Below the pieces are notes generated by a model. The model made no database searches. It was given only the letters and a program-made list of their open reading frames with translations, and was not told where the DNA came from. From Psammoneis japonica (lineage: Eukaryota): a stretch of 64,000 bases of DNA. Numbering within the stretch: position 1 is the stretch's first letter; every line of letters begins with the position of its first letter. Below, piece by piece: positions 3,035 to 54,287 of the stretch. The position numbers were made by a program, and so were the translations under genes. The DNA is taken from positions 186,001-250,000 of the forward strand of contig QPGO01000044.1 of the NCBI GenBank assembly GCA_008632985.1, read 5' to 3'.

Positions 3035-4329
3035 ATGGCTGTTCCAAAGTGCCACGTTGCCCAATTATGGATTTCTGTCATTGCCTTTCTCGGTATAATA
3101 TATCGAGATTGGGTTCATCACCTGCACTTATATCATCATTCCTTAAACGAGCCAACGCTCACTGCATCTGCGCTCACTGCACCTACTCTCACTGCATCCG
3201 TAGACCATCAAGATGAGAGTAGACACGCGTTTGAACCGACTGTAAAAAAAACCGTATCAAAGAAAAAAAAGCCGACTAAGCAAGAGAGAAAGGAGGAAAC
3301 AGTATGCGCAGACTGGCACACGAATATGGATTCATGGTGGCAGCACCACCCTGACTGGGAAATTTCTGAAGAGACAGCGACTGGATACTGCTTCTCACCC
3401 ATGCAGCACAAGGAAAAGGCTGAATTCTTCCGCCAGCTCTATTACATTCAATACACTGGCGACTGTTCCAACGTCAGAACCGTGGAAATCGAGTCCACTG
3501 GCTATGGAGAAACGTTCAACTTGGTTGATGCGGCTCTTCTCTATGCCTACGAGAATAACCAACCCGTTTCATTCCATCCAAGAAAGGGTCGATGGCACTA
3601 TGCTGCCAAGAAGGATGCAAGCACCCCTGTTTGTCCACGCAAAGATATGTCGTGCTACTTTCTGAATGTCACATCCTGTCAAGCCAACCCCGACAAGATT
3701 GAGAAGCCGAAAAAACCAAAAGGCGATTTTTCCGTTAATTCCCGAAAAGGCAGATGGATCTACGAGTATGCCACCCGTGGTCAACATGGTTGAGACGAGA
3801 AGTGTACAAGCTGTCCTCCACAACAGAGCTTGTTACACCATGTACAGTCATGCATGTTCGTCGGACCGATGCTGTACTGGAGAAAGGCAAGCACCGCAAG
3901 TATCACGCCATTCAAGAGTATGTGGATGGAGCTGGAACGGACCTTACCGATAACATTTTTCTTCTCACGGACGATCAAAACGCCATTGAAGAAGCGATTA
4001 CTGAGTTCCCTCAGTATAACTGGATGTACATGGATCGTCCGAGATATAGAGGAACTGAGGGTGGTTTTGAAGCACACATTCCTTCGGACGATCCAAAGTT
4101 CGAGGTGATTGTCATTCTATCAACGTTCAAGTTGGTGAAGCACTGCGAAACTTTTGTGCACGCTAGGAGCAGGTTTGCTACACAGATTCGCAGCAACATG
4201 CTTGATGCCAAAGCGATCGATCTCGACTACGGTAAGCAAGTTTACAATGATTCCAACGACAAAACTGTAGTCATTTCAAAATCATATCTGAGGAAGCAAT
4301 CACCATTTTTTAGTGGTTGGATTCGTTGA
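3035..4329 (+). CDS. Type II membrane alpha-1,6-fucosyltransferase-like (GT23/FUT8-like) protein, with an apparent 1-nt frameshift at ~3785
   Basis: N-terminal TM (LWISVIAFLGIIY); MHVRRTD resembles the FUT8 HVRRTD motif, followed by IFLLTDD; adding one A joins YATRGQ to TWLRREVY. Confidence 0.65.
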
Positions 4330-4384
4330 AAATAGAAAAGAAAACTTTAAATTTTGTCATACAAAACAGCGTGCCTTCAGTGTC

Positions 4385-7288
4385 CTATTCCTGACCTCCC
4401 GAAGCCGAATAAAGTTCAACGTCCAGCGAGTAGGATGCGTAAGAGAATGTCTTGTCGGCGACGTGCGTTTGATATCCATTGTCCACACACGTTCCTCTTG
4501 CCACAGAGAAGGGAGCAAACTGGCCAATACCCCACTGTGCCGGTAGAGACACAATGTGAGGAATGCAGAATTGTGCGCAGGAACTTTCGAACACGTCGCC
4601 ATCACCACTGCCGCCTTCAAGATATCGTTCGCCGTTGTTTCCTCCAGCATAGTTGCTGACAATATCTCCCACTTCCGTCGTGTACTCTAGGTCACACCCA
4701 GTCAAAAAGGGGTACTTGTATTGCTCGGCAGGCTTTCTAACTCGAAAGAGCAACAAGAGCAACATGATCACCCCAAGTGCACCCAAGACTTTCATGGGTA
4801 AGGGCTTGACTTGTGCAGAGGGCTGAGGCTGAGAATTAAAGCTGTTTGTCTCCAACTCGGCGCCCCACGAAACTAAGAGCGGAGTAAAGCACCCAATCAT
4901 CAGTCCGGTGAGGAGCACGACCCAACTATTAAAGGGAAAGAGGGCACAGCCAAGAACGGTAAACAGAATTGTCGATGCCCAAGGCTTTGGGAATTCTTCG
5001 CTCTCTCTTTCGTGCTTCTGCATATCGTCGACATTGACAGACTCTTCTTTCGGCTCATTCACTTCAGCTTGAGTGTGATTGGTATTTGATGGGGGTGAAT
5101 AGTCTTGTACCGAAACAACAGGTTCGTCGACCTCCTGTCGGTAGTCGTTGTAGCCGTCTTCTTGCTTTGATTCTCCGCCGATTACGCTTCTGACAATAGA
5201 AAACACATTCAATCCCAACACCAGCGACAAGCTGGTACAACTAGCACCGTTTGCTACAAGTGCATAGAGCAGGTTCGTTCCCATCATGATGGTAAATGAC
5301 ACCAGACCAAACACCTTCCAACTGCCGACTCGTTCTTCAATCACTCTTGTGTGTCGCCATAGGCAAAACACAACCATCAAGTACGTCAGCACACCACTGC
5401 AGAGAAAGTTTGATGAAATGAGCCTCGTGTACTGGCTTTGGTAGACAATAAGTGTTGGATTGTTGATGCCAAAATCGCTCAGTCCTTGGGCACTTGGGCC
5501 CAAGGATGGATTATTAATGGGATGAGCAAACCCCTCAACAACGAGCATTGCAATAAAGTAAAAGGTTGCGGCAACAAAATACGCAGCCGTCATTGGAAAG
5601 TCCTTGAACCGCTTAAAAAAGGACGACGCGGTCTGTTTCCACTGGGGTGACAACTTTAAGTGATAGTTGGCAAGAATCGCATCCGCGTCAAGCTGCAGGG
5701 GCCGTTGGCTGGATTTTGTCCGTGTGTAAAAGACGCCTGCCGCCAGGAGGCCGCCTAGAACGATGCTCGTGAAAAAGAGCGGAACTGACCGATGCGATGC
5801 ACCAAAGACAGACTTTTCTTCAAACACAGACGACGCCCAGTCCTCAAAACCGTATTCTTGGAGAGCGTAATAAAAGCCAAAGCTACAGTGGCCTTCCGAA
5901 TCCATGAAAAACGTGTCAACATTTCGATGCTTTGCTTGAACGGTACTTATAGAATTCGAAAGCTCACTCCACCACGTGTCATAACTGTAGTCACCACCAC
6001 CGCCGCCGTCTTGGTAACCGTCTCCGCCGCCGTTGCCAGACATCCATTGATAATATTGAAGCGAGATTGGATCAGTGGTGTGCGAGATCAGACCCCAGTT
6101 ATCGCGGTTGGACCCTCGCTTCAACACGTGATCCCAAACCAGGGTGGGGTATTCTGTGTTGTAGCGATACTTGCGGTAGTTGAATCCAATGCCTAAACGA
6201 ACGAACAAACAATATAGAGATGGCCAGGGCCGAGTGGACATGAGAAAAGACCCTCAGCACAGAAATAACCATGCGCTGAAGGACAACAACTCTTACGTTT
6301 CATGATCCTCGACGGATCCCAATTCTCTAGAGCATTCTCCAAAAAGTATTCGGGAGTCAAGTAGACGGGCGAGTCTGAAATGACATTGATTTGGACGGAT
6401 CGTCCTCCCTTGATAAAGGAATTGTAGTGCTTGTTCAACAAATCGTAGACAACCGGAAGAGCAGTCCCTCCAGCGCTGCAACCCGTCAAGGCAATGTGCG
6501 AGGGTTCTTTAAAGTTGCGAAAGATCCATCTCAGTACCGAAAACGTATTGTGTGCACCATGGTGAAGAACGGTTGCGCCATTATCATAGCTTGCCGTCGA
6601 GTCACCCATATGGATGTCTTGCGTGCAATACGGAACGACAACTGTTCCAGAAAAGTGGTATAGGTAGCGTAAGTCATCCAGAAGTAACAATAGAAACACA
6701 TAGTTTCGGCTTTATATTCCTCACCCGTGTTGTATTCGGTAAAATCAACGTCACCGAGTTGTTGTGCACACAGCATGTTGAACGGAGTTCCGTCGTCTCC
6801 ACCGCCAGAAATGCCGTATTGGATTTCACTGCAACTCAAACCCACAAAATTTTCCATCATATATGGAAAGGTCAGTCTATCACTCATCATACTGCAGGTA
6901 TCCGAGTCCCAACTTTTGAAAAAGATGTAACAAGCGAGATTAGATTTGAAACAAATGCTGAATCGAGAATCATCGCCAAAACACAGAAAACGCACCATGC
7001 TCCGCCTCCTTGGAATTCAATCAAGAGCTTTTGTTCATTTGCCTTTTTCTGAGTCGGTCTCGAGAAGAAAAAAGAAAAGGCCGTGCCATCGCCACAGGTG
7101 GGTCTTCCAAGAGAAACGCCCCACTTTTGCGGAGGACAAATCTTGTGAAATTGATTCGGTGTCAGTCTTGACGCTCTGACATTGTCGTGGATTGCGTCGC
7201 TGTCACACACATACTCTCCATAAGCTTCTGACAGCAAAAGTAAAGGTAGTACTATACATCTCCAAAACAACGTGATTGCGTGTGTCAT
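4385..7288 (-). CDS. Multi-exon gene: secreted pectin-acetylesterase/Notum-type hydrolase domain fused to a rhomboid-like multi-TM domain
   Basis: Signal peptide; PAE motifs CGDGT, IEFQGGG, VPYCTQDIHMG, LTGCSAGG (GxSxG), VISDSP; rhomboid-like NPSLGPS...QYTRLISSNFL..G and GASC in the 618-aa ORF. Internal exon boundaries are approximate. Confidence 0.7.
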
Positions 7289-7369
7289 TGTGCTTTTTCT
7301 GTTTGATTTTTCACAAAAACGCATCGGCTTCTTGCGTCATTGTCTCACGCTTTCTTGTGTTATGTGTTA

Positions 7370-9778
7370 TCATCATCTCCGGACAGGGACAGGCGGCGGC
7401 CGAGCGAGGCGAGCGAGCGGCGGAGCGAGCATGCATTGGCGTGCAAAATCGGACATGCCCGGCAAGCAAACATGTCGCTTGCGTGCTTTCCAATGTGTTG
7501 AAAATTTGAAAAAAGCAATTTCTGGAAACACGGAGTTGCAGAGAGCCGCAAACACGTTTTCCGGTCATTGCAGCTGCCACAACAAGCAGGGTCCAGCACC
7601 ATGTTTTTATTTTTCAGCAACTTTCAATGTCCCTGACACCACACACACCAGTTTTTTTTTGCCAAGCATCGATTTTTTTGCTGGACAAGGAAAGCCCAGT
7701 GTTTTTGTGTCGGGACATGAACATGTGTTGCATTTGGCAATCAATGCCAGTGCATTGTTCATTGATTTAATTGAAACATGTGAAAAATGTGTGCACTCTG
7801 TGCAAACAAAAAATGCCACGAATGTTTGATGTTTCTTTGTTCTTTCAAATGACTGACGACAACAGAGAGACAGATCATGAACACGGCTGCCTTCGCGTTC
7901 GACAAAATTAGCCGAACCCTGATGTCGTGAGGAAAAAGGAATTTTTTGCGGTGGATTCAAGGGGATTTGCATCACACTTGCATTTTAAGTTGTTTGAGTC
8001 AGTGTGAAAACAAAGATTCCCCTTTTAGAGTTGTTGCAACTGCTGATCGACAGCAAAGAACGATCACGATGGCAGTGATTGAGCTGTTTTCAATGCAATG
8101 TTGTTTCCTTGACACACTCATGAAAATTTAATGAGAACTTGTGTTGAAAAGAGTGAAATTTTGAATGTGTTCTGTGGGAGAATTGTTGACTGCAAAGCAG
8201 TGCGATGACATGGAACACAGCAACACAGTTGTTGTTGACGTCGTGCATCAGTTTTTAGGATTTGGGGGCCAAAAGGCACAAAAAGAACAAGAATGTTGAA
8301 TGAAAGTTGCAAACAGCACGCATTTTATGGGTGGAGCATCTTGTGTCATCATCGCTTTGGTTGACGAGCAGCATGAGTGTGACGCCATCGTTCGTGGTGT
8401 GGTGTGCTTGTTCCATCGAATTTGATTTGATGGAATGACACGTTGTGGTGTGAAGACCTGCAGGCATTTTATTTGTGCAGACATCCACACCACGTTCACT
8501 TGGGAAAAAGCGGAGTGAGGCCAAAACAGCACCAGGATGTGGCTTCACTGCTGTGTTCACCGACGTCATCTCAGAAAGCAGTGCATGCCAGCATGGCGTG
8601 GCAAACGTGAAGGCGGTCGCCTTCACTCATGATCTGTCACTCTGATGAAGGCGACCCCAAATGCAGCATGCTTGATCAACAATCATGAACTCACCATGAG
8701 ACTGATGTGTGTCGATGGCTTGCAATTGATGTCACATGTGTGTCTCACTGTGCTTTGAAATTCATTGATTGCAGTGAAAACTGTTTGCACCCATCGTTGC
8801 TTTTCAACCGCACAAGCCAAAATGAGCCTGTGACACTCTTGCATGTGCTTGTGCCACACACAACAAGTCCACAAGATTCAACATGCTGTTGATTGTTGTG
8901 GCCATTGAAGGCAGTGCCATTGAGAAAACTGTGATTGCAGAGTTGCCATGGTGAGGTGGTTTCCACGGTTTCCAGCTGCGCCACACCAATGGTGAATTCA
9001 TGCTGAAACTGAGTCGTGCTTGTCGAGTTGGCATGGCTGCCACTTTGCACATCATGTGCCCACAATTGTCAGTGGCAGGGCTGGCAGCAAAAAATCATGA
9101 CTCAGCAGAAAAAAAAAACAACTGAGGTCCCTGACAAGAACACCTGCCCCAGATCACAAGACAAAGATCATGTGGAAGAAGCGGCGACAGGGAAGATGTT
9201 GTGCTTGCCCCCTCCAGCTCATCATCCATTGCTCATGGTGCTGATTTTTTAAAAACATGAAACAATGCACTTTTTTCAATGGCACAGATGGGGTGCTGCT
9301 TCAAGAGACAGTGCAGCAGCCAGCACCCCCTCAGGAGGATGTGTGCGGTGCATCTGGGGGCTGCTGCTCAACAACATGAGTGGTTGGGTGACAGGAGCAC
9401 AAGCAAACAAGCACAGCTGGCTGCACAAAAGCAGGTTCAGGGGACACAAGACAATTTTTCCCATCTCAGCTCTTGTTCTGTGGTTCTTCAAAGTGGGCGG
9501 TGCCATTGAAAATGGGTTTTTTTGCCGCCACCCGCTCATGCACACGCACCAGTCTGTGATGAAATCCAATTTTTGACCAGCCATTGCAATGGGAACAAAA
9601 AGGGCAGCAGCAACTGGGCACATGTTGGTGCACCTGTGAAGTTGATCTTCTTTGGAACAGATTTGAGATGCCACAAGAAAGAGCCACACCAGCAGCTTTG
9701 GAGATGGTGAGGGGGTGGGGTTGTCAATGCAAGGAGTCACCAATCTCAGGTGAGCAGGAAGAAAATGATTTTGCAACG
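7370..9778. mobile_element. Degenerate, unclassified repeat/TE-like block, TpA-depleted
   Basis: Only about ten TpA by eye in ~2.4 kb, nearly all in TTTA/ATTA context; many short Tyr-free ORFs. TE identity is inferred from sharing the signature of the identified TE blocks. Confidence 0.5.
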
Positions 9779-10079
9779 TACCTGAAAGGACTGTGTGTCA
9801 CATTTTTGAACGACAAAAATGACACATTGATGTCCTCTTGTTGTTTTGAGTTGCAAGTCCTAACGAACAGCCAGTCATCGCCACCAGTCCCTCGTATTTA
9901 GGAGTCTGTCCATCAGTCTTGTCCGTGAGAATGCTGATGATGCAGTGCTGTAGATTCTGATTGGCTGGCGTTGGTGGCCGTTGGGGTATTATTACCGGCA
10001 CGCAGCAAACGGCAAACGGAAAACGCGACCATAAAAAGAGAAAACGATGCAACATGCAATCGCAGCAACGTGAATCATC

Positions 10080-15857: not shown

Positions 15858-16304
15858 TACAAGATAATTTGAAGGATTGACTCGTAAGCCAACGCGTTGG
15901 TGGCGGAAGGTTGTTTTACTTAGTACTTTTCACCTTTGGTGGAAACAATCTAGAGGAAAACTCACTCTCCCCTCTCCGTCATGGATGCGTTGAAAGTCAA
16001 AGCGGATGAGGGATGAGAAAAATGTTAGCGGAAAGCATTCTTCCGGGACTTGGGTGAAGGTCGAGTCGTGGTTGACGGCACCCTTGCAGGGACAAAACCG
16101 TGTACATACCACAATGCCGTAGGATCTACAGCAATCCCGTCTTATCTTACTGTATTTCGCGCTGAGTCTTGCGAACGACAACAGACGAGCTTATTTTTGA
16201 TGCGACAGCGCAGCAGTGTATGAGTAGAAGGTGCGTGCCGGGTCCTACATGCCCACGTGCGTGATGGGCGTCTCAGTCAAAGGTGGGTGAACTGTGTGCT
16301 GTAG

Positions 16305-17430
16305 AAAACATGCACTCTCAAGCAGAGGTTGGGTGGCCAGCCACTGCACAGGGCCAAACAGCCCCAGTGGTGCAGCCAGCTGTGTCGTCATTGCAGCATT
16401 TTTTGTTGCCATCACATGCACTGCATTTCCACACCTGTCTCAAAGCAAATGTTGTCACCACCCACAAATTGCTGACAGTGACAGCCAGTGAGAGCAACAA
16501 GAACTCAACAACACTGGCGCTGCACTTTCCAAAAATGACCCCTCCCCCAGTCAATTGAACGAAGAGCCCCCCCGGAGCTTGTTGTTGGGTTTCGATCAAC
16601 TTTGTCAACAGCTTTGCATTCAGCCAGATTTGGTCAATTTGTTGGTTCATTTGTCAAGCAAGGATCATCTTGTGGCATTGTTCATGTGTGGTGGTGTGGA
16701 CACGTGTCAAACAGGGTTGATCAAAATTCTGAAAACGGGTTCAAGTCAACGCGCACAACCATGTCTCACCACTCTTCCTTTGAGCAAAAGTCATCATGTG
16801 GAACGCCAATGGTTTTGGGAAAAAACTGCTCTTGATGCATCGGCGAAGCACAAATGTGCAGCAAAAGCACAAAAAAATGTTGACCCAAACCCTGTTTTTG
16901 TGATTTTTGAACCAGCGCACATGGCTTGTCTTCACACATTGTTTTGTTGAAGTTTCGCGGCTTGCCGACTGGCACACGTGCTCAGTCTTGCCAATCCTTG
17001 ATCTTGCCACATGGATTGCAAACACATCTCTGATGTCATTGCCACTGTTGTCATGACAGCCAGGTGCAGAAGCTGCAAAGGAGTGAGCATGAGACCTGCA
17101 ACTCGCTCATGAGTTGCGAAAATAAACTCGCCATGTCATCAGCAGTCTCGCCAGCGGCAATGCTGTCTGTCTGTCTGGCAAAAACTGCATCACACCCCAA
17201 TGATGTTCCAACAATTGTTCTCTTGGCAGTCAGCATGTGAGGGGTTGCAACCATGGTCCACTGCAGCGACCACTGTGCTGATCCACTGAGGCGGTGGCCG
17301 GGAAGAATCATCCCAAGGGATGATTCGTTGAGAGAGACGCATGCCGGTGGGACGGACGGACATCGATGAGCGAGCGAGCGCGCGCGGCGATCGACAGCGG
17401 GAGTTTTCAGTTTTGAGTGTTTTGCAAAAA
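16305..17430. mobile_element. Degenerate, unclassified repeat/TE-like block, TpA-depleted
   Basis: TpA essentially absent (one AATAAA at ~17121); only Tyr-free ORFs; no recognisable domain. Confidence 0.45.
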
Positions 17431-17446
17431 GAGTTGCTACCACGCA

Positions 17447-18457
17447 ATGAACAGCGATGAAGAACGGTTTCGACAGGAAGAGAAGGAGCGCGAACGGAAT
17501 CGCCGGCAGGTAGAGAATCGTGCTAGACAGTGGGCTGTCGCTGGGGATGACGATCAAGAAGATGATAGGAAAGGACGACGAAAAGATGAAAAGAAACATC
17601 GGCGTCACCGCCGCAGCCCGAGTGTGAGTTCGAGAAGCAGCGGCAGCGAGAACGACGTTCCCGAAAGCGACACAGACGCGATGAAAAGAAGAAGCACAGA
17701 AAAAAGAAGCGTCACAAAAAGAAACGACACTACAGCGACGAAAGTAGCTCAATGAGTGACAGTGATTCCTCCTCGTCAAGAGACCGAAAGAAAAAGCGCA
17801 AAAAGAAGAAACATAAAAAGTCAAAAGCTGACAAGAAAGAAAGTGTGGTGCCCGCTGGAGCTGGAAGTTTCGGAAAGTATGGCATCATCAAGCCTTCTGA
17901 TTTTCATAAACAGCAACGGTCCTTTGAGGTTTGGATGGGAGAAGTCAAGGTAGTTTGTTAGGAAATTATTGATGTTACGATCGTGAATTCACAAGCCGAT
18001 GTTTCTTACTTGGTGATACCGCGTGTAGGGCATTCCTGCTTTTACTGGACCAAAGTGGGAATTACAAAATTACTTTGCAGAGTATTGTGAGGACTTCAAC
18101 ACCGCCACCTTGCCTCACGAAAAGTACTACAATTATGACGATTGGGAAATGAAAGAATATCAGAAACGTCAGGCCGCCGAAAGGATTGAGGGAGGTGGAG
18201 CTGTTGCGGACGAGGCACGCCACAGGGCCATGCTCGAAAAGCAACGAAGGGAGAAGCAACAAGCGGAATTGAATGAGATCAAGGCACGTATGGGCAAGGA
18301 CAAGATTGAAGAAATGAAGCACCAGGCGCTTCTGAAGTCGACAATGGCTCATGCATATAAGACGGGCGACGAGGAAACGAGGCAGCGGCTACAGAAAAAG
18401 CTAGAACCAGAGGACGATCGCAATAAGAAGACTGCTGCCCACCCTTGGGCGAAATAG
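17447..18457 (+). CDS. Conserved eukaryotic protein of unknown function (K/R/S-rich N-terminus); intron 17950-18028; apparent 1-nt frameshift near 17650
   Basis: The spliced product reads FGKYGII..SD....RSFEVWMGEVK-GIPAF..KWELQNYFAEYCEDFNTATLPHEKYYNYDDWE, followed by a coiled coil. Confidence 0.7.
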
Positions 18458-24902: not shown

Positions 24903-27429
24903 GGTTGCCGATCCTACGATACGACAGCCAGAGGAATGTGTGCTGATGCACGACGTAACAGCGCTTCGCTACAGTACGGTTTTGTGAGCCTTCAAACGCA
25001 ACGGCTATAATTTGCGACAAATAGGTATCGATACAGTAAAATCATAAATATAATAGAAGTTGGATGCTCCATTCAAAATGTTTTCTTCGCGCTCGTACAT
25101 TATTTATAACGTTGACATCGCAAAGAGAGCACCCCCGCCACTCCCAACCCCCGCCAGCGCTATATCCCTCGTGAAGATTTTCGTCTGTTTTTTGTCCGTT
25201 CGTGCTCCTGTGGGCACGAACGGAGGCTGCGTAGGAGCGTACTGCCAAATCCTGGAGATGCCCGTTTTCATGCCAACAAAAAAAGGAGACAATGGCGTCG
25301 TTCTCAGTTCTGTATCAATGCCGAAGTCGCGACGTCTAGAACCGCAGCGCGCCGTTTTTCTGCTCGTAGACTTGCACGCTGTCATGGTGCAAAGGTCATT
25401 GCATGCACAGAGTCTACGATGAGTCTGTGCTGGAGCAAGAAATCTCGATTTGAATTCTCAGCAACCAACCGTGACTTTTTGAATTTTCATTTTTATGCTG
25501 CATCCCAAGTGGTCTTACCATCTCGCATCCCAGATTCTACACACACAAGACAACACAGAGATGTCATTCCATGCATGCCAACACCAATGGATGAATCGGC
25601 GTTGTGCTCTGTGATGACGTCCGAGTCAGATTGGGTGGAGCACTTCAATCCATCAGAGGACTTGAATTTTTGTGACAAGGATCTCCACTTGATTGAGGAC
25701 AGCTTGATGGATGAGCATGACAGAACCGAGCAGTCAAAGGACCGCCCAAAATGGAAATTGGACAACGATGGGAAAGACGTCAAGATCACCTTTAGCCAAG
25801 CTCCCCAAAAGGCATGGGAGACGGCCAAAGCTGAGATTCTGGGATGTCGTGAGAGGGTGAAAAAACTTGCAGGAAGAGAACACAAATTGACCGCCATTGA
25901 GGACATTGCATTGCCATTTGTGGGTGGTGCACAATCAGCCATGCGAAGAAGCAGAATCATCTTTACGTGCCACTGCACTCGGAGCACCGGCAGGACAGCA
26001 TGGCACCGTGCATTGTGGTGAAAAATGGACAGAAATTTGGAAATCTTGCAGAGAAGACAGAGCGCATGATGTGCATGGTTTTGCTGGAGGAAGACAGGCT
26101 GGACATGACACATCAGGGACTCAGAGCTTTTGACGTGGAGCGAGAATTAGGAAAGTGTCATCCGTGGGTGTTTGTGATGTCACCAATTGGAGCACGACCG
26201 TGCCCATCACTGAAATGTGATGATGACATGGAAGACCAACAGCACACATCATGTCTGAGCTGTTTGCATCTGTGATGTGAAACTGCCAGCAGCCAGAGAG
26301 CACACCATTTTTCAATGACAGAGCAACATGGTGTTCATTGTTGTGGGTTGCTGTTGACAGGATTTGAACAAGATTTTAGTTTGTGGCACACAATTGTGTG
26401 TGCTCTGAGCTCTGCATGCATTGTGCAATGCAGTTTGCTTTTGAGCCACTCAGTGCACAAGAACAACAACAGTGGTGCCGATGTCATGACACCAGTCTTT
26501 CTGCTCCTGTGACGGTCTCTGGTGGTCTCTGCACGGAGACTCATCTGCCATTTAGACAGCAGCAAGGAGTCGTTGTTTTCTTCCAACCATTTTCTCTTCA
26601 ATTTCTGTCAGGTTGACAGTCTTGCTCATTTTCATCCATTTTGAGTGTTCATCATGTCATTGAGAAATTTTTGATGACGTGCATTGTTGGCGGTGGGAAG
26701 CATGTGCCCAACTTCCCCATTGCTGTGTGTTTGGATGGGATGATTGCATTGGGATCCATTCAAGGTTTTTCATCACCAAATGCATCTGTTCAATGAACAA
26801 TCATCCACCAGAAGTTCTTGAGCTGCTGACAGCTGAGATTCAAAATTCCCTTTGGCTGTTCTTTCTGCCTGCCAGACAGACCAGCCTGCATTGTTTGGGC
26901 CTCTGCACTCTGCATGCACTCTGTGCACATGCACTCCAACTCTGGCCCTGCCACATGCATGCCAAGTCCATTGCCACCTGTCCACCCTGGATTGCTGGTC
27001 TTCCACAGTTCCACAAGGTCCACAAGGACAACTGTGAGAGGAAGCAGCTGTGGTTGCAGTCTGCGTTGGGGCAAGAGTGCCTTTCCCACATTTGTTTGTC
27101 CCTCCACAGCTCCTTCTTTTGGCCGGCCTGATCGGGTCATCCAAGCAACATAAAATGACAAAGGTTTGGAGGTTTTGTCCACCTCTGGCCAGCTTGTCAG
27201 CAGGGGTTTCTAGCCCATTGCTCTGCTCTCAAGCAACCCAAAGCACGCCAGTGGTGGGTTTGGACGTGATGTCACAACTCCAAGGACCAGATGGGAAGCT
27301 TGGCACTTTTCACCACTGATGGGACACCACAGCCCGGCTTCTGATTTGCAAGATGGCTCAAGATCTCAAGTCAAGTTTCAAGTCAAGTCCAGCTGAGCTC
27401 CTGGATCAAGCTCCAATGCTCTCCACAGC

Positions 27430-29690
27430 TGCACCATGGTTCTCACCAGGCAGCAACAAACCAACGGTTTTGAGCACATTTTGAGTGTTGTCCTGAAACA
27501 AGCTGCAAACAGCCCACTGTGCTCTGCCCTCAGCATTGATGGGACCAACTCATGCCAGGATCTCTTTGCATTTACTCCAGAACATCTCAACGCCTCAGTT
27601 TGCAATGATGGCACCAGCCAGATGCCTTTGCCACACAGCCACAAAGCACTCCTCATGGCATTGATCAGCATCCACACCATTAAATTGCATGAAGGTGCTG
27701 GTGTCAGTGACAACCCCACCTTGTTTGCACATGAAGAATTTGCTGATTGTGATTTCAGTCATAAACACATTGCATTCCTCTCTTCTGGCATTGCACCATC
27801 CACACCCACAACCAGCTCTTTGCCCCCAAAACCATGTGACCCAGTTTGTGACTTCAAACAAGGCATTGAGCATGACCCACTCACCTTCACAAGAACTCTC
27901 AAGTCTGCCCAACAAGCAGTGGCACACATGGCACACCTCCATTGTTGCACAAGCCTGCTCTCATGATGTCAACTGCATCCTCAATCCAACATGCAAGCCC
28001 TCCACACCCAAGGACAAGGCCCTGAGATGGTTCCCTTGTCTTTGTTGCAAATTGCCTCTTGGTTGGGCCAAACCCAGTCATGTTGGAGAAACAAGGTGCT
28101 GCGTTGACACAAGACAAGGCCTTTTCTTCCCAGCCATTGTTGTTGTTGGCTTCTCTGGGATCCAATGGAGTCACCAAAAGCCATCCCAGGACAACTGAGC
28201 ACTTGCACTGTTGCACAGATGGTTTTCTTGCATCTGTGGGTGGGGTGGCTGGGCCAAACCCAGCAGTGTCAGAGAGACAAGGTCCTGCATTGACACAAGA
28301 CAAGGACTTTTCTTCCCAACCATTGTTGTTGTTTTTGGCTCCTCTGGGATCAGAGTCACCAAAAGCCATCCCAAGATGACAACTGAGCAGCACTTGCACT
28401 GTTGCACAGATGGTTTTCTTGTCACTGTTGTTGGCATGGCTGGGCCAAACCCAGTCATGTCAGAGAGACAAAGGGCTGCATTGACACAAGATGAGGCCTT
28501 TTCTTCCCAACTTTGTTGTTGTTGGCTCCTCTGGGATCCAACAGAGTGCATTTTGTGGAAAGCAGCCTGGAAAAAATGACCCAATGTGATGGTGGTTCTA
28601 ATGATGGCACAGGAGCCAATCCTTGCAATGTCATTTTTGGGTGTTTTTGGTGCAATTGGTCAGCCAACCTGCCAACAGAAGCACATGTTTGCTGCATTTG
28701 AATGCATCTTGCAAAATGACAAAGAGGCAAGGCACTCATTTGTGAACATGTTGGCTCTTCTGATGCTCAAGCAGTGTGCCGCAAACTGTTCAAGTGCACC
28801 CTTGCATCTGCTGCGCATCCCTTGAGTCATTGACCCTTCTCACACACACCACCACCACTTGCCTTGTGATGGCACCCAGAAAGCAACCACCCATGCCTTC
28901 ACACTTCACTGGCAGGACACCAACTCCGCAAGTGCAAAGCTCTGATCCTGACTGCAGACTGCTTCTCTGCTGGCCAGAAATGCATGTCATGCTTGCAAAT
29001 GCCACTCACCCTGTTGAAGAACTCCGCTCAGCAAAGAACCAAGCCAACCAGTGTCACACACAGAGTGGCATGAGCTTTTCATACGAGCAACATTGTGGGC
29101 TCCTGCTTTCTGTGGCGGCACAGTGTGACAGCACTTTCACCCCCAAGATGGCCTCCTGTGCCCTGCACCATGCCATCTCCGCCCATGACCTGGTCCCCAA
29201 CGACTCCAATGATGATGCATTTTTTGACATCAACAGTGACGTTGATGCTTGCAGTGCCTCCCTCACCAAGGAATGCAACTTGTTGCCAATGGACACCTCA
29301 CAGATGCACCCACTGACAGTGTCTGCTCTGGAGTTGTGTCCCTCCATGGTCTTTGCTCCATGGTCTTCGGCTGATGATCTTCCTGGCTGAACTCAACAAA
29401 CTAGAGACATGGGTGACCAACATTGGCAATGCCTGTCTCAAAGCTGCAACCAAGGAGAAACTGCACATTGCAGCAGGCCCCAAATTCAGCAAGCTGGAAG
29501 GACACATCCTTGTCATCCACAAGACTCCACATGGACCACGCAGCTCCAGCCTCAGGTGGCATGAATGCTCACCAATTGTTTGCATGCCAAAGGTCTCTTC
29601 CTGTGTCATGCTGAACCCGGCATCTGTTTGCATTGGAATGGCAACTGCTGTGAATGCGCGGCAGTGCATGTGGACAACCTGGCCTCTTTG
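27430..29690 (+). mobile_element. Ty1/Copia (CoDi-like) relic with an internal deletion (gag joined to RT)
   Basis: gag-like DFKQGIEHDP, WHTSIVAQACSHDVNCILNP and MLANATHPVEELR; RT-like LRLMIFLAELNKLETWVTNIGNACL..KEKLHIAAGPKF..LEGHILVIHKTPHG.RSS.LRWHE. Confidence 0.8.
28064..28547. repeat. Diverged tandem repeat, ~186-191 bp unit, about 2.6 copies
   Basis: TGGGCCAAACCCAG starts at 28064, 28250 and 28441, each followed by homologous TTGACACAAGA..TTTTCTTCCCA..CTCTGGGATC. Confidence 0.85.
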
Positions 29691-32031
29691 CCATGAAGGA
29701 CAATTGTGTGTGCTTGCAGTTCTGCATGTGATGTGCGACGCAGTTTGCTTTCAAGCCACTTGGCACAGAAGAATGACAACAGCAGTGCTGATGTCATGAC
29801 ATCAGTCTTTTGGCTCCTGTGATGGTCTCTGCACGGAGACTCTTCAGAGTTGTTGTTTTCTTCCACCCATTTTTTTTTTCAATTTCTGTCACTGTTGTTG
29901 TGGTCATTTGGAGCTGCAGCTCACAGCTCAGGTCATTTGAAAACAGTTGGGCAACCAAACAAGAGAGACACAAATCAGACCAATGGAAATGTCACAAGCC
30001 AGCACATCTCTGTGAATGAAAACAAAACATTTTTTTCACACATTTTCCAGCACAATGACAACATTGCACACATTTAAAAAATGCCATGATGTGCAACTTT
30101 GGATTTGTGTCAAACCCAGATGCTTTGTAGAATCACCACCAGCAGTGATGCAATGGAAAGACCCAGATGTGCAATTTTGGCCACAGTTTTTTTCTGCACA
30201 TCTTGGTTGGAAAAAAACTGTGCACAGAAATTGCACTGAGAATCCTTCAAGATGGACAGAAAAACCTGGACATGCAACAAAAGGACTGTGAGTGTTCAAC
30301 TTTTTGTCAACCAAAGTTGTGTGACACTTTCTGAAATTTGTGTTTGAAAACTTGGGTGAGCTCTCCTCACATGAAAATTGTGCATTTTCTGCATGAGCCT
30401 TGAAAACAACAGTTAAAAATGTGCACAGACAGTGACCGTTACTCAACACAATGTGCAGCACCAAGACGTGTGCATTGTGCAGTGGATGGCACAACATGAT
30501 GACCCACAAAGATGAGAGACCATGCATTTTTCTCAGAGGATTGAAATGAGTGAAGCCTTCTTCAGACTTGCACACACACATGTTGCGAAGCAGGTGGGGA
30601 GGAAAGATGCTCCAGAGCACTGCACTGATGTCTGATGCAAAAGTTCATGCTGGTGTGGCATTTTCTCCAGGAGCAGCAACAATGACTCCTCTCAATCTTG
30701 TGCCATGCTAGAACACAGCTGGCTGACCTCCAGAAACTTTGGGCAGATGGCGCAAGGTTTCTGGCTGCAGCAGATTGGTGCAACGGGCAATCTCCTGCAG
30801 AGAACATGATGCAACTCACACGCATGTGCTCACAGGCTGCAAGGTGTGTGGCGCACATCAGAGCTCCTCCATCAAAGACTTTAACACACAAGAAACAACC
30901 TTCCTTTTCTCAGAGGCAGCAGCCAGCTTCGCCCTGCTGAAGAAACAATCTCGTGCCCCCTGCTGAGGGGACGATGTCTGGCACCTTTTTTGCCTGCATT
31001 TGTCAAAGCGGCTCATGATTTGCACCATTTGTTGTGAGCTTTGCTGCAACTCACACTGGTGGTGAAAATTGATCACACAACAAGTGCCACAAGCAAGCGC
31101 AGTCCCCCCCCACCACCACAGCGGCCATCCCCTCACACAATTTTTTGTCCGCTGCATTTTGTGCTTGGCTGGCAGTTGTGCCAAAGGTCAGAAACATGGC
31201 AGGGTTGAGCTCCCCCAAAAAAAGTTCAGGGAGAGCAGCCAAAAAGAAGAAAAACTCAGCAAAGAAACAAAGCAACCCATCAGCGCACAATTTCTGATGA
31301 GTGAACGCACTTCGTGCGGACAAATGTGTGCGATGCTTGGTCAAACATGTGGTGATTCACCAATGATGTGTGTGTGTGTGTGGTTTCTCCAAGATTTTTG
31401 TCTTGAAGCTCTCACTCCTGCACAAATGTTTGCAATGTTTTGTGAGTGTGATGTGCAGCTCATGTTTGCAATGTTTTTTTAGCATGTTGCTGTGGTGGTC
31501 ATGCACGTGCTGAAAAATCAGCAGTGCCTTTTTGTTCAGAAAAGTTGCCCAGAGCAAGAACTTGCCATGAAAAAGGGAACATACACGAGAAAATAAGCTC
31601 CAATCCAAAACTTGCGGTGTGGCTTTAATTGCCGTCCCTCTGGAAAGTGGGCCCACTCTTGGTAACCTTGCGGTGGCATGGACGACGTTGTCCAAGAAAA
31701 GATTTACTGGCCGTTACAAGTACAATCTCAAATGGCACCGACCGTAAATACTTTTAACCATGCTTTAAAATATGTTTGAAATAGAGTAAAATCCGATACT
31801 GAGTTGCTTGGTTGTCCGTTGAATGAGAATTAAAAACCTTCGTGTTTTGATGCTTTCATTTGGGATCACTTCTATGTTAATAAAAGAAGTTCATGCAATT
31901 TGGTAATTAGAAATGTTTAAAGTATAATATATTTGGCGACAAGCGTTTTGGGTTATATTTCTTCTTTTCAAACACGAATATACAATTAAAGAGTTTCGGA
32001 TGATTTTTTCCCCGCCACAACGCAGTGAGAA

Positions 32032-33348: not shown

Positions 33349-33739
33349 CCATTGGAATGCACTACTTGTAGAACGCGCTAGAAATTATAAAGTATTGCTT
33401 CAAAAAGTTACATCCTTTCTGCACCGTACTGTAATGATAGGAGTCAAAAGTGTGGTTTAATGCTTCGTATCTCAGAACAAATTTGGCAACCCTCTCTTCC
33501 ACTGCAATTGACACGACAACGAAGCTTTCTGACACTGGAACAACTCGCACGACTAGTCTAATGCGAGTACGAAAGGACACAATGGAGGGGCTCTAGCTAG
33601 GCTTGAAAAAGTTAGACCCAAACTTTTCCACGCGGAAACCTGCGCGTCTTGTGCTGAAAAATCGTCACCATGACGAACCCTCCGCCGCCTCCGGCTAGCC
33701 CTGACGGGGATTATCACCCTGATCCACCTTTTGCCATTA

Positions 33740-36000
33740 GAAGTTCCTCCTGCTCTGACCAGAACTGGCATTGGTGTGTCCAACCATTTGGAAATGCAAG
33801 AGATTGCCCATTGTTTCCAGTTGACATCCAATGACCCCAGTGCCCTGCTGTGTTGGCGATTGGCCACACTGTGATTCTCCATGCCCTCCAACAGAAAGCA
33901 ACTCAAGACCCTTTGGTCAACAAGGTGTCAATTTATTCAAACTGGCAATTCCCAACCTTTGCAGACCTTGTCATGGAGTTTCTCTCTCAGGATTGACACG
34001 TGTTGCAGTGCTGACTTGTGGTTTCCTTGATTGGTTGTTTCTTTGCAGGTTGTCTTGTTGCGCCACTCCTTGATTGGTTCAAGGGGATGCTTGGCTCCAT
34101 GGGACAATGTTTGTTCAACTTTGTCCCACAGTGGATGACACTGCATTAGAAGGGGGCGAAGTGCATCAATGGATCGGAACTCTGAGCCACAGCCCAGGAT
34201 GGATGTTTGTTGTGTGCTTCAAGTGCTCTCTTGAGATCCAGGTTGAAACATTGAGAGAGGATCATCCAGTTTCGTTTGGCTTCATTTGCAGGCTTGATTG
34301 TTGGGTGTTGTGGCCAAGAAGGCCGGGGTGGATCAAGTGAAGCATTCAAAAATTGTCTCTTGCTGGAGGTTGGTGAAGGAGATGAGCAAGTCATCTGCAT
34401 CACTGCGGACTGTTGCGTTGGCGCAATCTTGTTCAACCAAAGTTGAGCACGCTGGTCAACATCAAAGAGTGCCTTGGCCAGGAAGGATGAGTCTTTGGCC
34501 TGTTGGTTGTCATGCAAGATGCCATGTTTCTTGACATGGTGAATCCAGGTGAGGAGGTTTTGGGTCACCAGGGAGTTTTTGCCCATGACAATGGCAAGTG
34601 GGCTTGCAAAGTTTTGGATTTGGAAGGACAGAGTGTTGGCTGTGGCAGGCAACTTGAGCTTCTGTTCTGTGATCGTCTTGATGTCTTTGTCTGGCAACCC
34701 TTTTCCTTCTTTGACTTGCAAATGAAGGCACATTGCAGAGGCTGATGTTGTCTTGTTGTCATTGCTGCCTGGGGAGACAGGTGGGACTGAAGTTGTTTGG
34801 GAGATCATCTCTGTCCCAGAGGAATTCTCCACCTGGCATTGCTGCAATGGTTCCTTGCTTGAGGACTGTGAGGCAACTGAATCTGTTCCTGAGGGTGTGT
34901 TGTGCCCAGTTTCTGACTGCAGTGAATGTTGGTTGTTTGAAGAATGAGGATGCAAGATCGGATGGACTGGTGGGTGCGGTGTCACCATCCAAAGATGATC
35001 CAAAAAGGATCATTCATTGGGAGTGGGCTGCCAATTTCTCAAAATTGGCTGTCTTTTTCTCCAGGCATTTGCTCTGATCTGATCATTTGGATTGCAGGTG
35101 TGTCATGAGCTTGGTGATGCTCAAAACAACACCTTGCAGCATTGCATTGGAGGTGACACCTGGGTGGTTTGTCGCAGTGTCACTCAATGCAATGGAGGAC
35201 TTGTCAAGTTCTTCAAAGCATTGCAGAACTGCTGCATTGGCGACAGCACTTTGGGTGAAGGCTGGAATCTTGTTGTGGGCAATGGCCCAAAGGGAGGCAG
35301 CAAGCCATCAACAGAAGTTCTTGGATGTGCTGGGACAGTTTTTGTCACCTTTGTGAGCTTGATCGCAGTCATTTGTGGCCAAGAGGGTGGCAATTGGTGG
35401 TGGGTTGGATGCAGACCAGTCATCTTTGTCCATGAATCGGCTCGTTGTGAATGAAGGGAAAGGGGCAGCCAATTGGATGGAACATGGCTTTGGCGGCTGA
35501 TTCCAATTGAGTTGGAGGGGCAATGTTGTCTGCTTGTTTGTCAGCTGATTCCAGGTTTTTGATGTTGTTCCAGGTTGGGGTGTTAAGTTTCATTGTTGTG
35601 AAGAAGTCTTCTGAGTTCACTTGTGCAGAGCATGCATGTGAGCCCATTCCAACTGACATTGCATGGAATGTTTCCGACTGGAGTCTTGTGCCACCAACAA
35701 CAGCACAGTTGTGGAGCAGAACGGGATTCCCTGTTGCTTGGCATGCACTGAGGAAAACTGTGTCTCCTTTGAGATGCATTCAATGGCTTGATTCCACAGG
35801 AGTTTTGTGTGGAATCTCTCGCAGAGAGCCCAACATGTGATCTGTGTCATCGTTCAACAGTCGGTTCACAAAGAAGTTTTTCCAGCTGTTTGCCAGCAAC
35901 ATGGCAGACAAATTGTTGTCTTTTAAAGACTGGGACAACTTGACAGAGCTTGCAACACATGACAATGATTGTCACAGCATTGTCAACAACTTCCAAAGTC
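33740..36000 (-). mobile_element. Relic of a DIRS/Ngaro-like (tyrosine-recombinase) retrotransposon: ORF1 plus start of RT
   Basis: HPLWDKVEQTLSHGAKHPLEP...GNHKSA resembles the pre-RT region of Ngaro-like elements, from memory; ORF1-like DSSFLAKALFDVDQRAQLWL; TpA-depleted. Confidence 0.55.
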
Positions 36001-36683
36001 AACTGTTGACCATCGGCATGTGAAATTGAATTCACCGAATGTCGCACGCGCAGCCGAAAGAATTGACAAATCTGTCTGGTTGTCCTTCCGTCCAAATTTT
36101 GTGTGTCACACGCACTCTCCGCTCTGACTCCGAGGACCAACAAAGCATGCAGCAAGGCCAGAGTTGGGGCGTTTGCCCATGAAGTGCCTGCAGAGCACAG
36201 AGGCCTGAGCTGGGTGGACTGGTCCATCTGGCAACCCCCTGAGCAGCAACTGCCACAGGAAACTCGGAACCTCAACCATTGAAAAATCAAAAAATTCTTG
36301 GTGGAATGAACAACATTGGTGACAAGGAACCTCAAACAGACTGCCTGGAAGCAATTGCCAAATGGACATGTGCAGCAATGAAGACAATTGAGCCAACTCA
36401 AATGTCTGGCAACAAAGAAGTGTTGGGAGTGTGCTTCCATGGACAAGGTGGGCATTGTCGGCAAAACAATGACAATGATGACAGCCACTTGGCAAAGGAT
36501 GAAACAATTAGAAAGACTGTTGACATGACAAAATTTGAAGAAGAGTGTGACAGAAGAAAAACAATGCTCCTTGCTGCCATCCAAACAGCAGATGAACCTC
36601 TGTGGAGAGACTGCCACAGGAGCTGAGAGGTGCGCATCACAAAGCCAGGCTGTTGTTGTTGTTGTTGTTGCTGCTGCTGCTGC

Positions 36684-36715
<32 letters not shown>

Positions 36716-37500
36716 TTTTTGGGAGCTGAGTGGCTCAAGAGCAAAGCCACATCAATTGCACAAAAGCACATGGAGCCAAAAGCACACAAACCTGTGTTGC
36801 TGGCAATTGGAGTGATGAGTTGAAAACCCCTGCAAGGGGGGAAGCCTTTGTCATTTTGCATCAGCTGGGAAGTCAAACACAAGCAAACACAGGAAAGCAC
36901 ACCTCCAATCTTCAGTGCAGGCTGCAAGCTTCTTCTTGCAGTCATCCTTGTGGACCTTGCAGAGCTGGGGCGACCAGAAGAACAGCGGTCTGGGGTCGTG
37001 GATGTGGAGCAGCGGGCATGGCGCACTTGTGGCAAAGCTTGAGCTGGGGCATGCACGCACAAATTGTTGTGCACAGAGCACAGCAGAGACCTCTGAGTTG
37101 GGCAGCAGAGATCTCTGAGTTGGGGGGGGGGGGGGGGCTGGGTTGTCTGGTGACCCCCTGAGCAGGAACAGCTGCAAGGAGCTCGGAGCCTCTCAGCTGC
37201 TGGAAAATCTTGAAAGTCCCAATGGAGTCAATGCACCCAGCAATGAGAAACCTTGAACAGATCAGAGAACAGTTGCCAAGTTGGCACACCTGACCCGCCA
37301 ATTGCTGCAGCTGAACCAACCCAAGTGCACAGCAATGAGGAAGTCATGCAGGTGCTTCCACCAGTGCAGCGTGCGTTGTTGGGGCAATGACGATGTTGGC
37401 TGCTCAGCGGACAAAACAGTGGGCAAGGCCGCCAATCTGATGGAAGATTAAGATGAGCATGGCAAAAGAAAAATGACATCGGCCACAAAATGGTTTTGCC
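36000..37500. mobile_element. Degenerate repeat DNA related in reverse orientation to 26.3-27.1 kb
   Basis: Reverse complement of ~36720-36760 matches TTGAGCCACTCAG at ~26440; KVHKDDCKKK (minus, ~36950) versus KVHKDNCERK (plus, ~27020). Confidence 0.6.
36651..36713. repeat. (TGT/TGC)n trinucleotide microsatellite
   Basis: About 21 consecutive TGT/TGC triplets. Confidence 0.95.
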
Positions 37501-42900: not shown

Positions 42901-43411
42901 GCAATGCTGATCAATGCTCACTTGAAGGAGCCTGCTGCTTGGATTCAGGGAGCTGCATCCCAAACAGGAGGATTTATAATTGCCAAACTCAACTTGGAGG
43001 TACTTTCCAGGGATACGGTACAACGTGTGAGGACGACTCGTGTCTCGTCACCAATGTGAAGCAAGGAGCATGTTGTTCAAAGACCGATAAAGTTTGCATC
43101 ATTGTCTCCGAGGAGTCTTGCGGACTCGTAGATGGTGTTTACCAGGGTGATGATACGGTAAGAGTCAGTGGCTTCATGCCGGTTTGTTGTTGAAACGTTG
43201 ATTCTAACATCGCCATGTCCACCCTTCTCCACCAAAGATTTGCGATTCTTATCGCTGCACTGTCAAAGGGGCCTGTTGTTTGGACTCGGGTGGCTGCGCT
43301 TCGAACACTAAGTCTTTTGAATGCAGGCAAAAACTTGGTGGAACGTTCCAGGGTTTTGGCACAAATTGCCAAGACAGCTTTTGCCCAGCCACGAGTACTC
43401 TTCAACTCTAG
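39915..43411 (+). CDS. Secreted metzincin (reprolysin-like/M12B-M72 type) with exon-encoded C-terminal GACC Cys-rich repeats; many introns
   Basis: Signal peptide; IDIMVLWT, RIEYGADVV, spliced FTFGHEIGHNQGCLHD; about ten GACC...C...(D/G)G.(Y/F)QG modules; TAG at 43409-43411. Confidence 0.85.
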
Positions 43412-43912
43412 ATAAAAGGTCAAGTTGATGAAAAGAGAAGAAAGTTAAAGAATGGCACGTGAGTTGACAAAACTTTGTTTCGTGTTACATTTATATGAAA
43501 ACGCTGATTAAATTGACATCAGTTAGTTTTAGATTGAGCAAATTTTACCTTAGTGAAGCGCGCATGAAGCGATGCAGTTATGTAACTAGGGAACTCGCCT
43601 GACGGATGAGGGGCGAAACGCTTGTTTGGAATTATGCTCAGGTCATGATAATAATCACAATCTACACTCTCCTTAGGAAAACAGTGAATCTTTCACGACA
43701 TGCGGGCATACACAACACGTATCGTACTCTATATATCTCTCAACTACCTAAGATAACACAACCCACCTTTTGCCTTTTTCCGTCGTACCACTAATTTAGA
43801 ACTGGCGGCCGACATCGCATCGAACTCTCACTTTGGTTGTTCAAAGTCACCATCATGGTCCAGTCCGGCACTTCCAATCACGAGCTACTCTTGAGCGTCC
43901 TGTCTATCGAAG

Positions 43913-44074
43913 TGAATAAATTACCCTGTAGTCGCATGAACTAGGGATAAGACTAAAAGAAAGGCTTGTAACATCGTGCTACTTTTCTAGAAGTGAAATC
44001 TAAACCTGGGGAACCGCCGTGCGCCCAATCGCCAATGACAAAGCACACCAAACTAATTGGAATTGATAACATGG
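43913..44074 (-). repeat. LTR-like direct repeat, copy A (3' LTR; retains TA/CG)
   Basis: TG...CA bounded (TGAATAAATT...GATAACA); homologous to 54121-54287. The true LTR may extend further. Confidence 0.75.
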
Positions 44075-54120: not shown

Positions 54121-54287
54121 TGAATGAATTACCCTGCAGTTGCATGAACCAGGGACAAGACTAAAAGAAAGGCTTGTGACATTGTGCCACTTTTCTAGAA
54201 GTGAAATCTAAACCTGGGGAACCACCGTGCAATGCACCTGATTGCCAATGACAAAGCACAACAAACTGATTGGAATTGACAACATGG
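54121..54287 (-). repeat. LTR-like direct repeat, copy B (5' LTR; hypermutated)
   Basis: Aligns to copy A; followed on the minus strand by CCTTGTCAGAGCCA, which resembles a decayed tRNA-Met PBS (TGGTATCAGAGC). Confidence 0.75.

Follow-up and report, generated by a model that had tools for sequence, protein, structure and literature searches.

In a 64,000-nucleotide (64-kb) stretch of the genome of the diatom Psammoneis japonica (GenBank assembly GCA_008632985.1, contig QPGO01000044.1, positions 186,001 to 250,000, forward strand; here called the window, with coordinates counted from its first letter), sharply bounded blocks have lost nearly all of the dinucleotide TpA and very different proportions of CpG, in both cases in favour of TpG and CpA. 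We conclude that the same domains are subject to two processes, one fast and acting on TpA, the other slow and acting on CpG; in the explanation of the whole pattern that we consider probable, both are mutational and both are restricted to the same silent DNA. All results come from this one 64-kb window, with particular attention to the block at 7369–9860.

A sequence-only reading of positions 7370–9778 had described TpA as almost absent (about ten by eye) with CpG still common. The stretch contains exactly 10 TpA (at 7608, 7768, 7909, 7986, 8026, 8129, 8256, 8326, 8470 and 9250; observed/expected ratio (O/E) 0.06), and all of the survivor strings and CpG strings that were quoted are found in the sequence. 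CpG is common in that 68 copies persist (O/E 0.51), but this is about half of the background and is very unevenly distributed; CA and TG are in excess (O/E 1.86 and 1.74, respectively). For comparison, the TA-normal parts of the window have a TA O/E of 0.52–0.69 and a CpG O/E of 0.77–1.01. The contexts of the survivors do not match base composition: T precedes all 10 (0.348 expected from the composition of the block itself; P = 2.6 × 10−5) and 9 of the 10 are TTTA (0.137 expected; P = 1.5 × 10−7). The observation made on this stretch is confirmed and is far from chance.

Segmentation of the 64 kb on TpA density with a two-state hidden Markov model gave six normal stretches (TG/CA O/E 1.1–1.2) and five TA-poor blocks, which have sharp edges and make up about half of the window. 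The first block, 7369–9860, contains 7370–9778 and has 11 TpA (TA O/E 0.062, CpG O/E 0.51, TG/CA O/E 1.8). The second, 16303–17730 (TA, CG and TG/CA O/E 0.058, 0.775 and 1.58), retains CpG and is not called CpG-poor, and the third, 25539–31581 (0.050, 0.209 and 1.86), is CpG-poor from 26200 onwards. Both dinucleotides are depleted in the fourth block, 33739–37448 (0.021, 0.236 and 1.76), and in the fifth and largest, 44114–61616 (0.057, 0.193 and 1.87). When the second block is trimmed to 16403–17630, four of its five surviving TpA lie at 17438–17566, near the right edge, and the right boundary may be about 300 nt further left than segmented.

The direction of change is recorded in three ways. 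With the gene-rich normal DNA of the window serving as the 'ancestor' for all gains and retentions given here, in place of the true ancestors of the repeats, the blocks are short of 39.2 TA and 36.7 CG per kb and have gained 42.5 strand-pooled TG per kb (that is, 85 TG + CA). The corresponding ratios of blocks to normal DNA are 0.09 for TA, 0.25 for CG, 1.59 for CA/TG, 1.04 for AA/TT and 0.99 for AG/CT. In the pooled blocks, GA/TC (0.85) and GC (1.18) also deviate, which may reflect the composition of the ancestors; the remaining dinucleotides shift little.

The second record is a frameshifted remnant of a Copia-type retrotransposon in the largest block (44199–48391, minus strand), along which amino acids 2–1410 of protein P0002 align by tblastn from 48391 to 44199. 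Its identity was obtained from protein searches only: an open reading frame (ORF) at 45794–46264 (minus strand) matches P0001 and P0002 (PF07727 RVT_2, Copia-type reverse transcriptase; E = 1 × 10−35), and Pfam searches of 44100–48600 and 44100–46800 (minus strand, three frames each) returned no transposon domain. At the 37 codons for which the homologue has Tyr, the remnant reads His at 14, Cys at 9, Tyr at 1 and other residues at 13; among control codons, His is retained at 18 of 30, Cys at 11 of 19 and Phe at 15 of 28. As the CpG counterpart, the 59 Arg codons of the homologue read Arg at 13, Gln at 10, Cys at 10 and His at 8. The remnant is codon-level proof of TA to CA/TG and CG to TG/CA changes. 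Together with a fragment resembling a Copia reverse transcriptase in the third block (29276–29715; tblastn, P0002 amino acids 913–1051, E = 1.7 × 10−7), it shows that the process acts on mobile elements. The remnant also includes a 144-nt tandem duplication (45424–45711, 99% identical) in which both units are TA-poor. The surviving TpA of one unit, CTTAAC at 45558, recurs in the other at 45702, so this duplication is later than the erasure.

The third record is a pair of paralogues found by self-comparison. A repeat copy just outside the largest block (43912–44074, plus strand) retains TA and CG, and the copy inside the block (54120–54287, plus strand) has TG/CA at 9 of the 13 TpA and 5 of the 6 CpG of the outside copy (counted by hand on the printed alignment). 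The four TpA that the inside copy has kept are TTAC, CTAA, CTAG and CTAA.

CpG depletion is nested within TpA depletion. A separate segmentation on CpG with a strict model called 8653–9863, 26200–31585, 33706–37369 and 44191–61729 as CpG-poor. Of the eight edges, 8653 and 26200 lie inside TA-poor blocks, and the other six coincide with a TA-poor block edge to within about 115 nt. TA-poor segments that retain CpG occur at 7369–8652, 16303–17730 and 25539–26199; no CpG-poor segment with normal TpA was found across the window in the separate TA and CG segmentations. The sequence-only reading had proposed that TpA loss runs ahead of, or independently of, CpG loss, and had called the two uncoupled. 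The first part is borne out, as TA O/E is 0.02–0.06 in all five blocks and CG O/E ranges from 0.19 to 0.78, and 'uncoupled' is apt for the degree of loss, with TpA at its floor whatever the level of CpG. It does not apply to space: the depletions coincide in the same domains with common edges, and TA and CG O/E are correlated over 128 intervals of 500 nt (Spearman's ρ = 0.76), so that 'independently' is not supported in that wording.

These shared borders are also what would be expected if one enzyme or repair bias converted both palindromic pyrimidine–purine (YR) steps, TA and CG, to TG/CA in silent domains, with CpG levels reflecting the starting content. Besides the correlation and the six matching edges, a single process would account for the identical products of TA and CG with their good mass balance, and for the weak positive correlation between TpA and CpG within blocks (ρ = 0.21–0.26, P = 0.02–0.05). 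In addition, the preprint describing TpA hypermutation in Bigelowiella natans, which is discussed below, cites enzymes of the ADAT2 type for which A and C in DNA are both substrates of deamination (bioRxiv 10.64898/2026.01.13.699255). We nevertheless regard a single process as unlikely. CpG O/E varies from 0.19 to 0.78 at a constant TA O/E of 0.02–0.06, the dependence on neighbours is unlike (odds ratios (ORs) of 0.09–7 for TA compared with 0.7–1.5 for CG), and the hypermutation reported in B. natans is nearly all AT to GC (230 of 231 mutations).

The block at 7369–9860 displays the two losses at different degrees side by side. Its CpG O/E declines from 1.29 in a GCG-rich microsatellite at the left edge (7369–7506; 15 CpG) to 0.68 in the left half (7507–8500), 0.31 in the right half (8501–9510) and 0.27 in the right tail (9511–9860). 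The left half has a TA O/E of 0.11 and contains 9 of the 10 survivors, all of which are TTA and 8 of which are TTTA; none is TAAA. A single TpA remains in the right half (O/E 0.02), and the right tail is TA-free. When the block is divided once, the CpG-rich part at 7369–8500 (CG O/E 0.82) has nine TpA and the CpG-poor part at 8501–9778 (CG O/E 0.30) has one (P = 0.008). The absence of TpA from the microsatellite, where 3.4 are expected, has a probability of 0.03, which makes the left boundary of the block soft. The absence from 9511–9778, where 10.4 are expected, has a probability of 3 × 10−5. The surviving CpG show only weak context (GCG, OR = 1.5; TCG, OR = 0.7).

CpG decay looks to be still in progress in this block. 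We compared the assembly with contigs from a public sequencing run (X1, assembled by Logan and aligned at a likeness of at least 80%), which may derive from the assembly's own sample. Among the 40 listed of 262 differences, seven inside the block are differences to a single contig at full depth, and four of these are CG versus TG/CA (8373, 9186, 9206 and 9349). One pair of differences represents CA versus TG at one dinucleotide (8347/8348), again between an X1 contig and the assembly. These differences look like allelic or strain polymorphism, with ongoing CpG decay and independent resolution of one ancestral YR step.

The TpA that survive follow a graded context rule. We trimmed each of the five blocks by 100 nt, pooled the 106 TpA that remain in them and used 1,374 TpA of normal DNA as the reference. 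YTAR makes up 64 of the 106 survivors and 242 of the 1,374 reference sites (OR = 7.1, P = 1 × 10−20), and the enrichment persists when the reference is restricted to TpA outside ORFs (141 of 685; OR = 5.9). Conversely, RTAY accounts for only 4 survivors compared with 408 reference sites (OR = 0.09). By tetranucleotide, retention is 0.44 for TTAA, 0.27 for CTAA/TTAG, 0.13 for CTAG, 0.02 for GTAC, 0.01 for ATAC/GTAT and 0 for ATAT. YTAR predominates in four blocks (7 of 10, 13 of 20, 4 of 5 and 39 of 66 survivors), and the exception is 16403–17630 (1 of 5).

Runs of T or A have an effect of their own. TTTA or TAAA is found in 55 of 106 survivors compared with 199 of 1,374 normal TpA (OR = 6.4, P = 1 × 10−17), and retention rises with the longest flanking T run (5′) or A run (3′), from 0.031 for no such base to 0.077 for one, 0.22 for two and 0.43 for three or more. 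Retention reaches 0.66 for TTTAG and 0.79 for TTTAAA (6 versus 8). Among TTA half-sites, TTTA is again over-represented (61 of 108 survivors versus 207 of 630 in normal DNA, P = 4 × 10−6), and a run shields a site even if the +1 base is a poor one (TTTAC 0.17 and TTTAT 0.13, versus VTTAC 0.04 and VTTAT 0.02). The proposal that TpA next to T/A tracts is protected therefore holds, as a real but incomplete rule: to first order YTAR is spared and RTAY is erased, and the tract acts on top of this.

As TA is self-complementary, retention alone cannot separate a 5′ from a 3′ effect, but the products can. The gain in TG depends on the following base (16.7 per kb before C, 11.6 before T, 9.1 before G and 5.2 before A) and hardly on the one that precedes the T. 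Among six non-palindromic flank pairs, five show a clear excess of the product in which the changed A had the better +1 base; the sixth has a pyrimidine at +1 on either side and nearly equal gains (ATGC 2.90 versus GTGT 2.76). TTTA sites became TTTG and not TTCA. The +1 order C, T > G > A also fits 12 of the 16 informative Tyr events in the Copia remnant (P = 0.038, binomial test; contexts were classed by eye). The best description is that the A of 5′-T-A-Y-3′ is changed on either strand, and that purines at +1 and T/A runs slow the change.

Survivors could also be newcomers and not protected sites: after erasure, T/A runs may have yielded them by slippage or T↔A changes, or CA/TG by C to T changes. 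Runs of T and of A are indeed frequent in the blocks (TT O/E 1.40), and the survivors at 7608 (TTTTTATTTTT) and 8470 (TTTTATTT) do look like single changes inside a T run. However, births from TG/CA would follow the order TTGT > TTGC > TTGG > TTGA, and the survivors show the reverse (TTAA > TTAG > TTAC > TTAT). T to A changes in T runs would yield TTTAT, but the strand-pooled counts are 25 TTTAA and 17 TTTAG versus 9 TTTAT and 9 TTTAC. The four TpA common to both paralogue copies must be old, and the single retained Tyr codon is TTTAC. A survivor order opposite to the birth order, together with the TpA shared by the paralogues, requires differential loss. We consider it highly improbable that the survivors in general are births, although a few, such as 7608, may be new.

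The interior of the block at 7369–9860 differs from its surroundings in summed X1 contig depth, which is not equal to copy number, as well as in composition. Summed depth is about 56 in the flanks, 205–243 over 7507–8508 and 463–614 over 8509–9510, where up to 29 different contigs align at one place. The raised depth does show the interior to be part of repeated families, with two halves that are unlike. The interiors of 7369–9860 and 16525–17526 have 2–11 times the depth of their flanks (116–155 in the second block), and transitions make up 180 of the 248 differences among aligned pieces. The microsatellite at the left edge is at the depth of the flanks (56.9) and has no other copy aligned to it. 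The right tail has no other aligned copy (depth 55.9), and 9511–9778 is at single depth like the flanks; this TA-free tail either belongs to the element as a unique stretch that has diverged, or reflects erasure spreading a few hundred bases past the repeated core. In the self-BLAST within the 64-kb window, the block has no relative. Pfam searches of the six frames of 7300–9900, read through with X, gave no family at E ≤ 0.1, and the sole row for the block is at chance level (Zn_ribbon_Elf1, E = 0.96). We read the block as repeated, non-coding DNA inserted between two diatom genes, and probably as a decayed mobile-element sequence of at least two parts.

X1 contigs over 4000–7658 and 9034–9983 differ from the assembly at four letters each, and this agreement indicates that the TA-poor sequence is real at both edges of the block. 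We consider it very improbable that the pattern arose without a mutator, either because the blocks belong to a kind of DNA whose composition lacked TA and CG from the start or because sequencing or assembly introduced errors, such as miscalled modified bases: the block has no Pfam domain or within-window relative and the listed read sets all come from one sample and one study (X3 gave no coverage and X2 little inside the block), but the contigs agree with the assembly, Tyr codons of the Copia polyprotein read His or Cys, and the outside paralogue retains TA and CG that the inside copy has lost.

The explanation by two processes can be set out as follows. A fast, TpA-specific transition process would convert TA to TG or CA, putatively by adenosine-to-inosine deamination at the A of 5′-TA on either strand. 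Its rate would depend on the neighbours, being far higher at T-A-Y than at T-A-R (+1: C ≥ T > G >> A) and lower still next to a 5′ T run or a 3′ A run, so that the last TpA to remain would be YTAR and above all TTTA(R) and TTTAAA. A slower decay of CpG to TpG/CpA, with weak neighbour dependence, would act on the same domains; it is most simply deamination of 5-methylcytosine, which we infer because diatom repeats are CpG-methylated, and methylation is predicted here. The left half of the block would then be at an early stage, with TpA reduced to refractory TTTA sites and CpG at about 0.7–0.8 of expectation, and the right half at a late stage, with TpA at 1% and CpG at 0.3, where stage may mean time or exposure.

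Several observations weigh against this explanation. In the Copia remnant, every Tyr codon has its sense-strand A in T-A-Y, and yet Tyr to His (14) exceeds Tyr to Cys (9); part of the His may be ordinary divergence. The expected split of products by the preceding base is weak, with a purine before 11 of 14 His and a pyrimidine before 6 of 9 Cys (P = 0.077), and in the paralogue pair the strand of the product fits the +1 rule at only three of six informative sites. Three of the 10 survivors in 7370–9778 are TTTAT, a context that the +1 rule calls vulnerable. Across the whole block, TTTA outnumbers TAAA by 9 to 1 on 48 T runs and 48 A runs (Fisher's exact test, P = 0.015), an imbalance that a strand-symmetric mutator does not predict and that may be due to chance or to inheritance from the source copy. 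Pfam detected no transposon domain in the block at 7369–9860, and neither a significant family nor a transposon domain in 37 ORFs of at least 150 amino acids within the blocks. The use of summed depth for copy number and of gene-rich DNA for the ancestors adds to these reservations. Targeting of one strand, as by transcription, was considered for the TTTA/TAAA imbalance and is unsupported, as TG (125) and CA (110) are similar in number in the left half of the block.

The window contains long, intron-poor ORFs, including an Aa_trans amino-acid transporter, a major facilitator superfamily (MFS) transporter and an ankyrin protein. One of the transporters has 252 matching proteins at E ≤ 0.001 (best identity 56%), and among the 120 of these that were listed, all of those named by organism are from diatoms (Stephanocyclus, Thalassiosira, Attheya, Nitzschia, Seminavis, Cylindrotheca, Epithemia, Mayamaea and Pseudo-nitzschia). 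The block at 7369–9860 is flanked by minus-strand ORFs that end near 7000 and by the MFS gene, which starts at 10080, and these genes are divergently oriented. Tandem repeats of about 320–380 nt (five copies) occupy 41676–43386 and 62617–64000, with related copies 20 kb apart at 65–97% identity and a TpA O/E of 0.5–0.9. As these repeats keep normal TpA, repetition alone does not bring erasure.

Among known systems, fungal repeat-induced point mutation (RIP), which occurs in ascomycetes such as Neurospora, changes CpA to TpA in repeats, which become enriched in TpA. The diatom blocks resemble RIP in that they show transition hypermutation of repeated or mobile DNA with sharp borders and a dinucleotide preference. 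The polarity is the opposite: A:T pairs are hit, TpA is destroyed and CpA/TpG is enriched (TA O/E 0.05 and CA/TG O/E 1.84 in the blocks). The link to duplication is mixed, as the interior of the block is multi-copy by summed depth, the TA-free 9511–9778 is at single depth and the tandem repeats at 41.7–43.4 kb and 62.6–64 kb have no TA depletion. Diatoms have DNMT4 enzymes that are related to RID and are without known function (PMC9998398).

The CpG half of the pattern has a familiar counterpart. In methylated repeats, CpG decays by deamination of 5-methylcytosine. Similarly, the blocks show gradual CpG to TpG/CpA change in repeat domains with weak neighbour dependence, seen at Arg codons of the Copia remnant (Gln 10, Cys 10 and His 8 of 59), at five of six CpG of the paralogue and as CG versus TG/CA differences between assembly and contigs. 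Methylation in diatoms is reported to be mainly at CpG and on repeats (PMC5124317). The TpA half is not explained by 5-methylcytosine. Segments at the very start of CpG decay have already undergone full TpA erasure, and the opposite is never seen; this kinetic order separates the process from damage at methylated cytosine and offers a two-clock staging of silent DNA.

Two known sources of A to G change were rejected for the TpA half. DNA polymerase eta (Pol eta), a comparison suggested by the sequence-only reading, has a WA motif and causes A to G changes at TA and AA; this comparison fails, as AA/TT (1.04) and AG/CT (0.99) are unchanged in the blocks. ADAR enzymes accept a 5′ U about as well as A, followed by C and then G, favour a 3′ G and treat UAG as a good site. 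ADAR-type editing disagrees with the unchanged AA/TT and with the sparing of TAG (retention 0.27 for CTAA/TTAG and 0.66 for TTTAG).

The TadA preference, also raised by that reading, does fit. DNA adenine deaminases derived from TadA prefer YAC (ABE3.1) or YAY over YAR (ABE8e-YA) (PMC12528748). Like these enzymes, the process changes A to G in DNA with a pyrimidine on the 5′ side and prefers a +1 pyrimidine, T-A-Y over T-A-R. The 5′ base is T and AA is not a target (TA at 0.09 and AA/TT at 1.04 of normal DNA), and the 3′ preference is evident both in retention (TAA > TAG >> TAC, TAT) and in TG gain (C > T > G > A). The TadA-derived enzymes differ in that they are engineered, are guided by Cas9 to single-stranded DNA and accept CA besides TA. 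A natural TA-specific DNA adenine deaminase would be of interest for base editing.

The closest counterpart is the TpA hypermutation of integrated giant-virus and virophage DNA in B. natans, the only case that surfaced in a literature search for TpA hypermutation in diatoms. In mutation-accumulation lines of this alga, 231 of 302 nuclear mutations fell in two integrated viral regions, and 230 of the 231 were A to G or T to C, all at TpA (bioRxiv 10.64898/2026.01.13.699255). The same preprint reports a de novo rate of about 10−7 to 10−6 per site per generation and clusters that are poor in TpA, rich in CpA + TpG and enriched in reverse-transcriptase and DDE domains, and proposes an ADAT2 homologue as the enzyme (Mettrop et al. 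2026, bioRxiv 10.64898/2026.01.13.699255). The diatom case is the same kind of process: TpA gives TpG/CpA (according to the mass balance, 23 of 37 Tyr codons and 9 of 13 paralogue sites) within bounded regions of foreign or mobile origin in which TpA is scarce and CpA + TpG is abundant (five sharp blocks with a Copia remnant and fragment). The two cases also differ. The host is a diatom and not a chlorarachniophyte (Rhizaria), the evidence is a footprint here and ongoing mutation measured there, and erasure is near complete here (O/E 0.02–0.06) compared with a Rho of 0.45 reported for the nucleocytoplasmic large DNA virus (NCLDV) region there. Change in the diatom is also not almost purely AT to GC, as CpG to TpG/CpA is strong in three of the five blocks (CG O/E 0.19–0.24); we read this strong CpG loss as the second process. 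The block at 7369–9860 adds to the known pattern the nesting of CpG decay in TpA erasure and the graded effect of tracts. The words 'context', 'flanking', 'trinucleotide', 'CpG' and 'diatom' do not occur in the main text of the preprint, which thus describes neither a neighbour rule nor the relation to CpG.

Only one report (2026) describes a genome defence in which A:T pairs are rewritten at TpA; it concerns an unrelated alga and names no established enzyme. The diatom footprint suggests that the process is widespread among marine protists. The neighbour rule found here is graded, with T-A-Y changing fast, T-A-R slowly and T/A runs giving protection, and can be tested directly with candidate deaminases and against the de novo mutations already published. 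We put forward only tentatively the possibility that a natural DNA adenine mutator exists in diatoms, one that is targeted to domains, reads 5′-T-A-Y-3′, is hindered by T(n)A(n) junctions, acts faster than and apart from 5-methylcytosine decay, and belongs to the same ancient defence as the Bigelowiella hypermutation, which would make it widespread in the SAR (stramenopile, alveolate and Rhizaria) supergroup. If a mutator were indeed shared across SAR, the neighbour rule would predict which B. natans de novo mutations come first, and would identify the enzyme in vitro.

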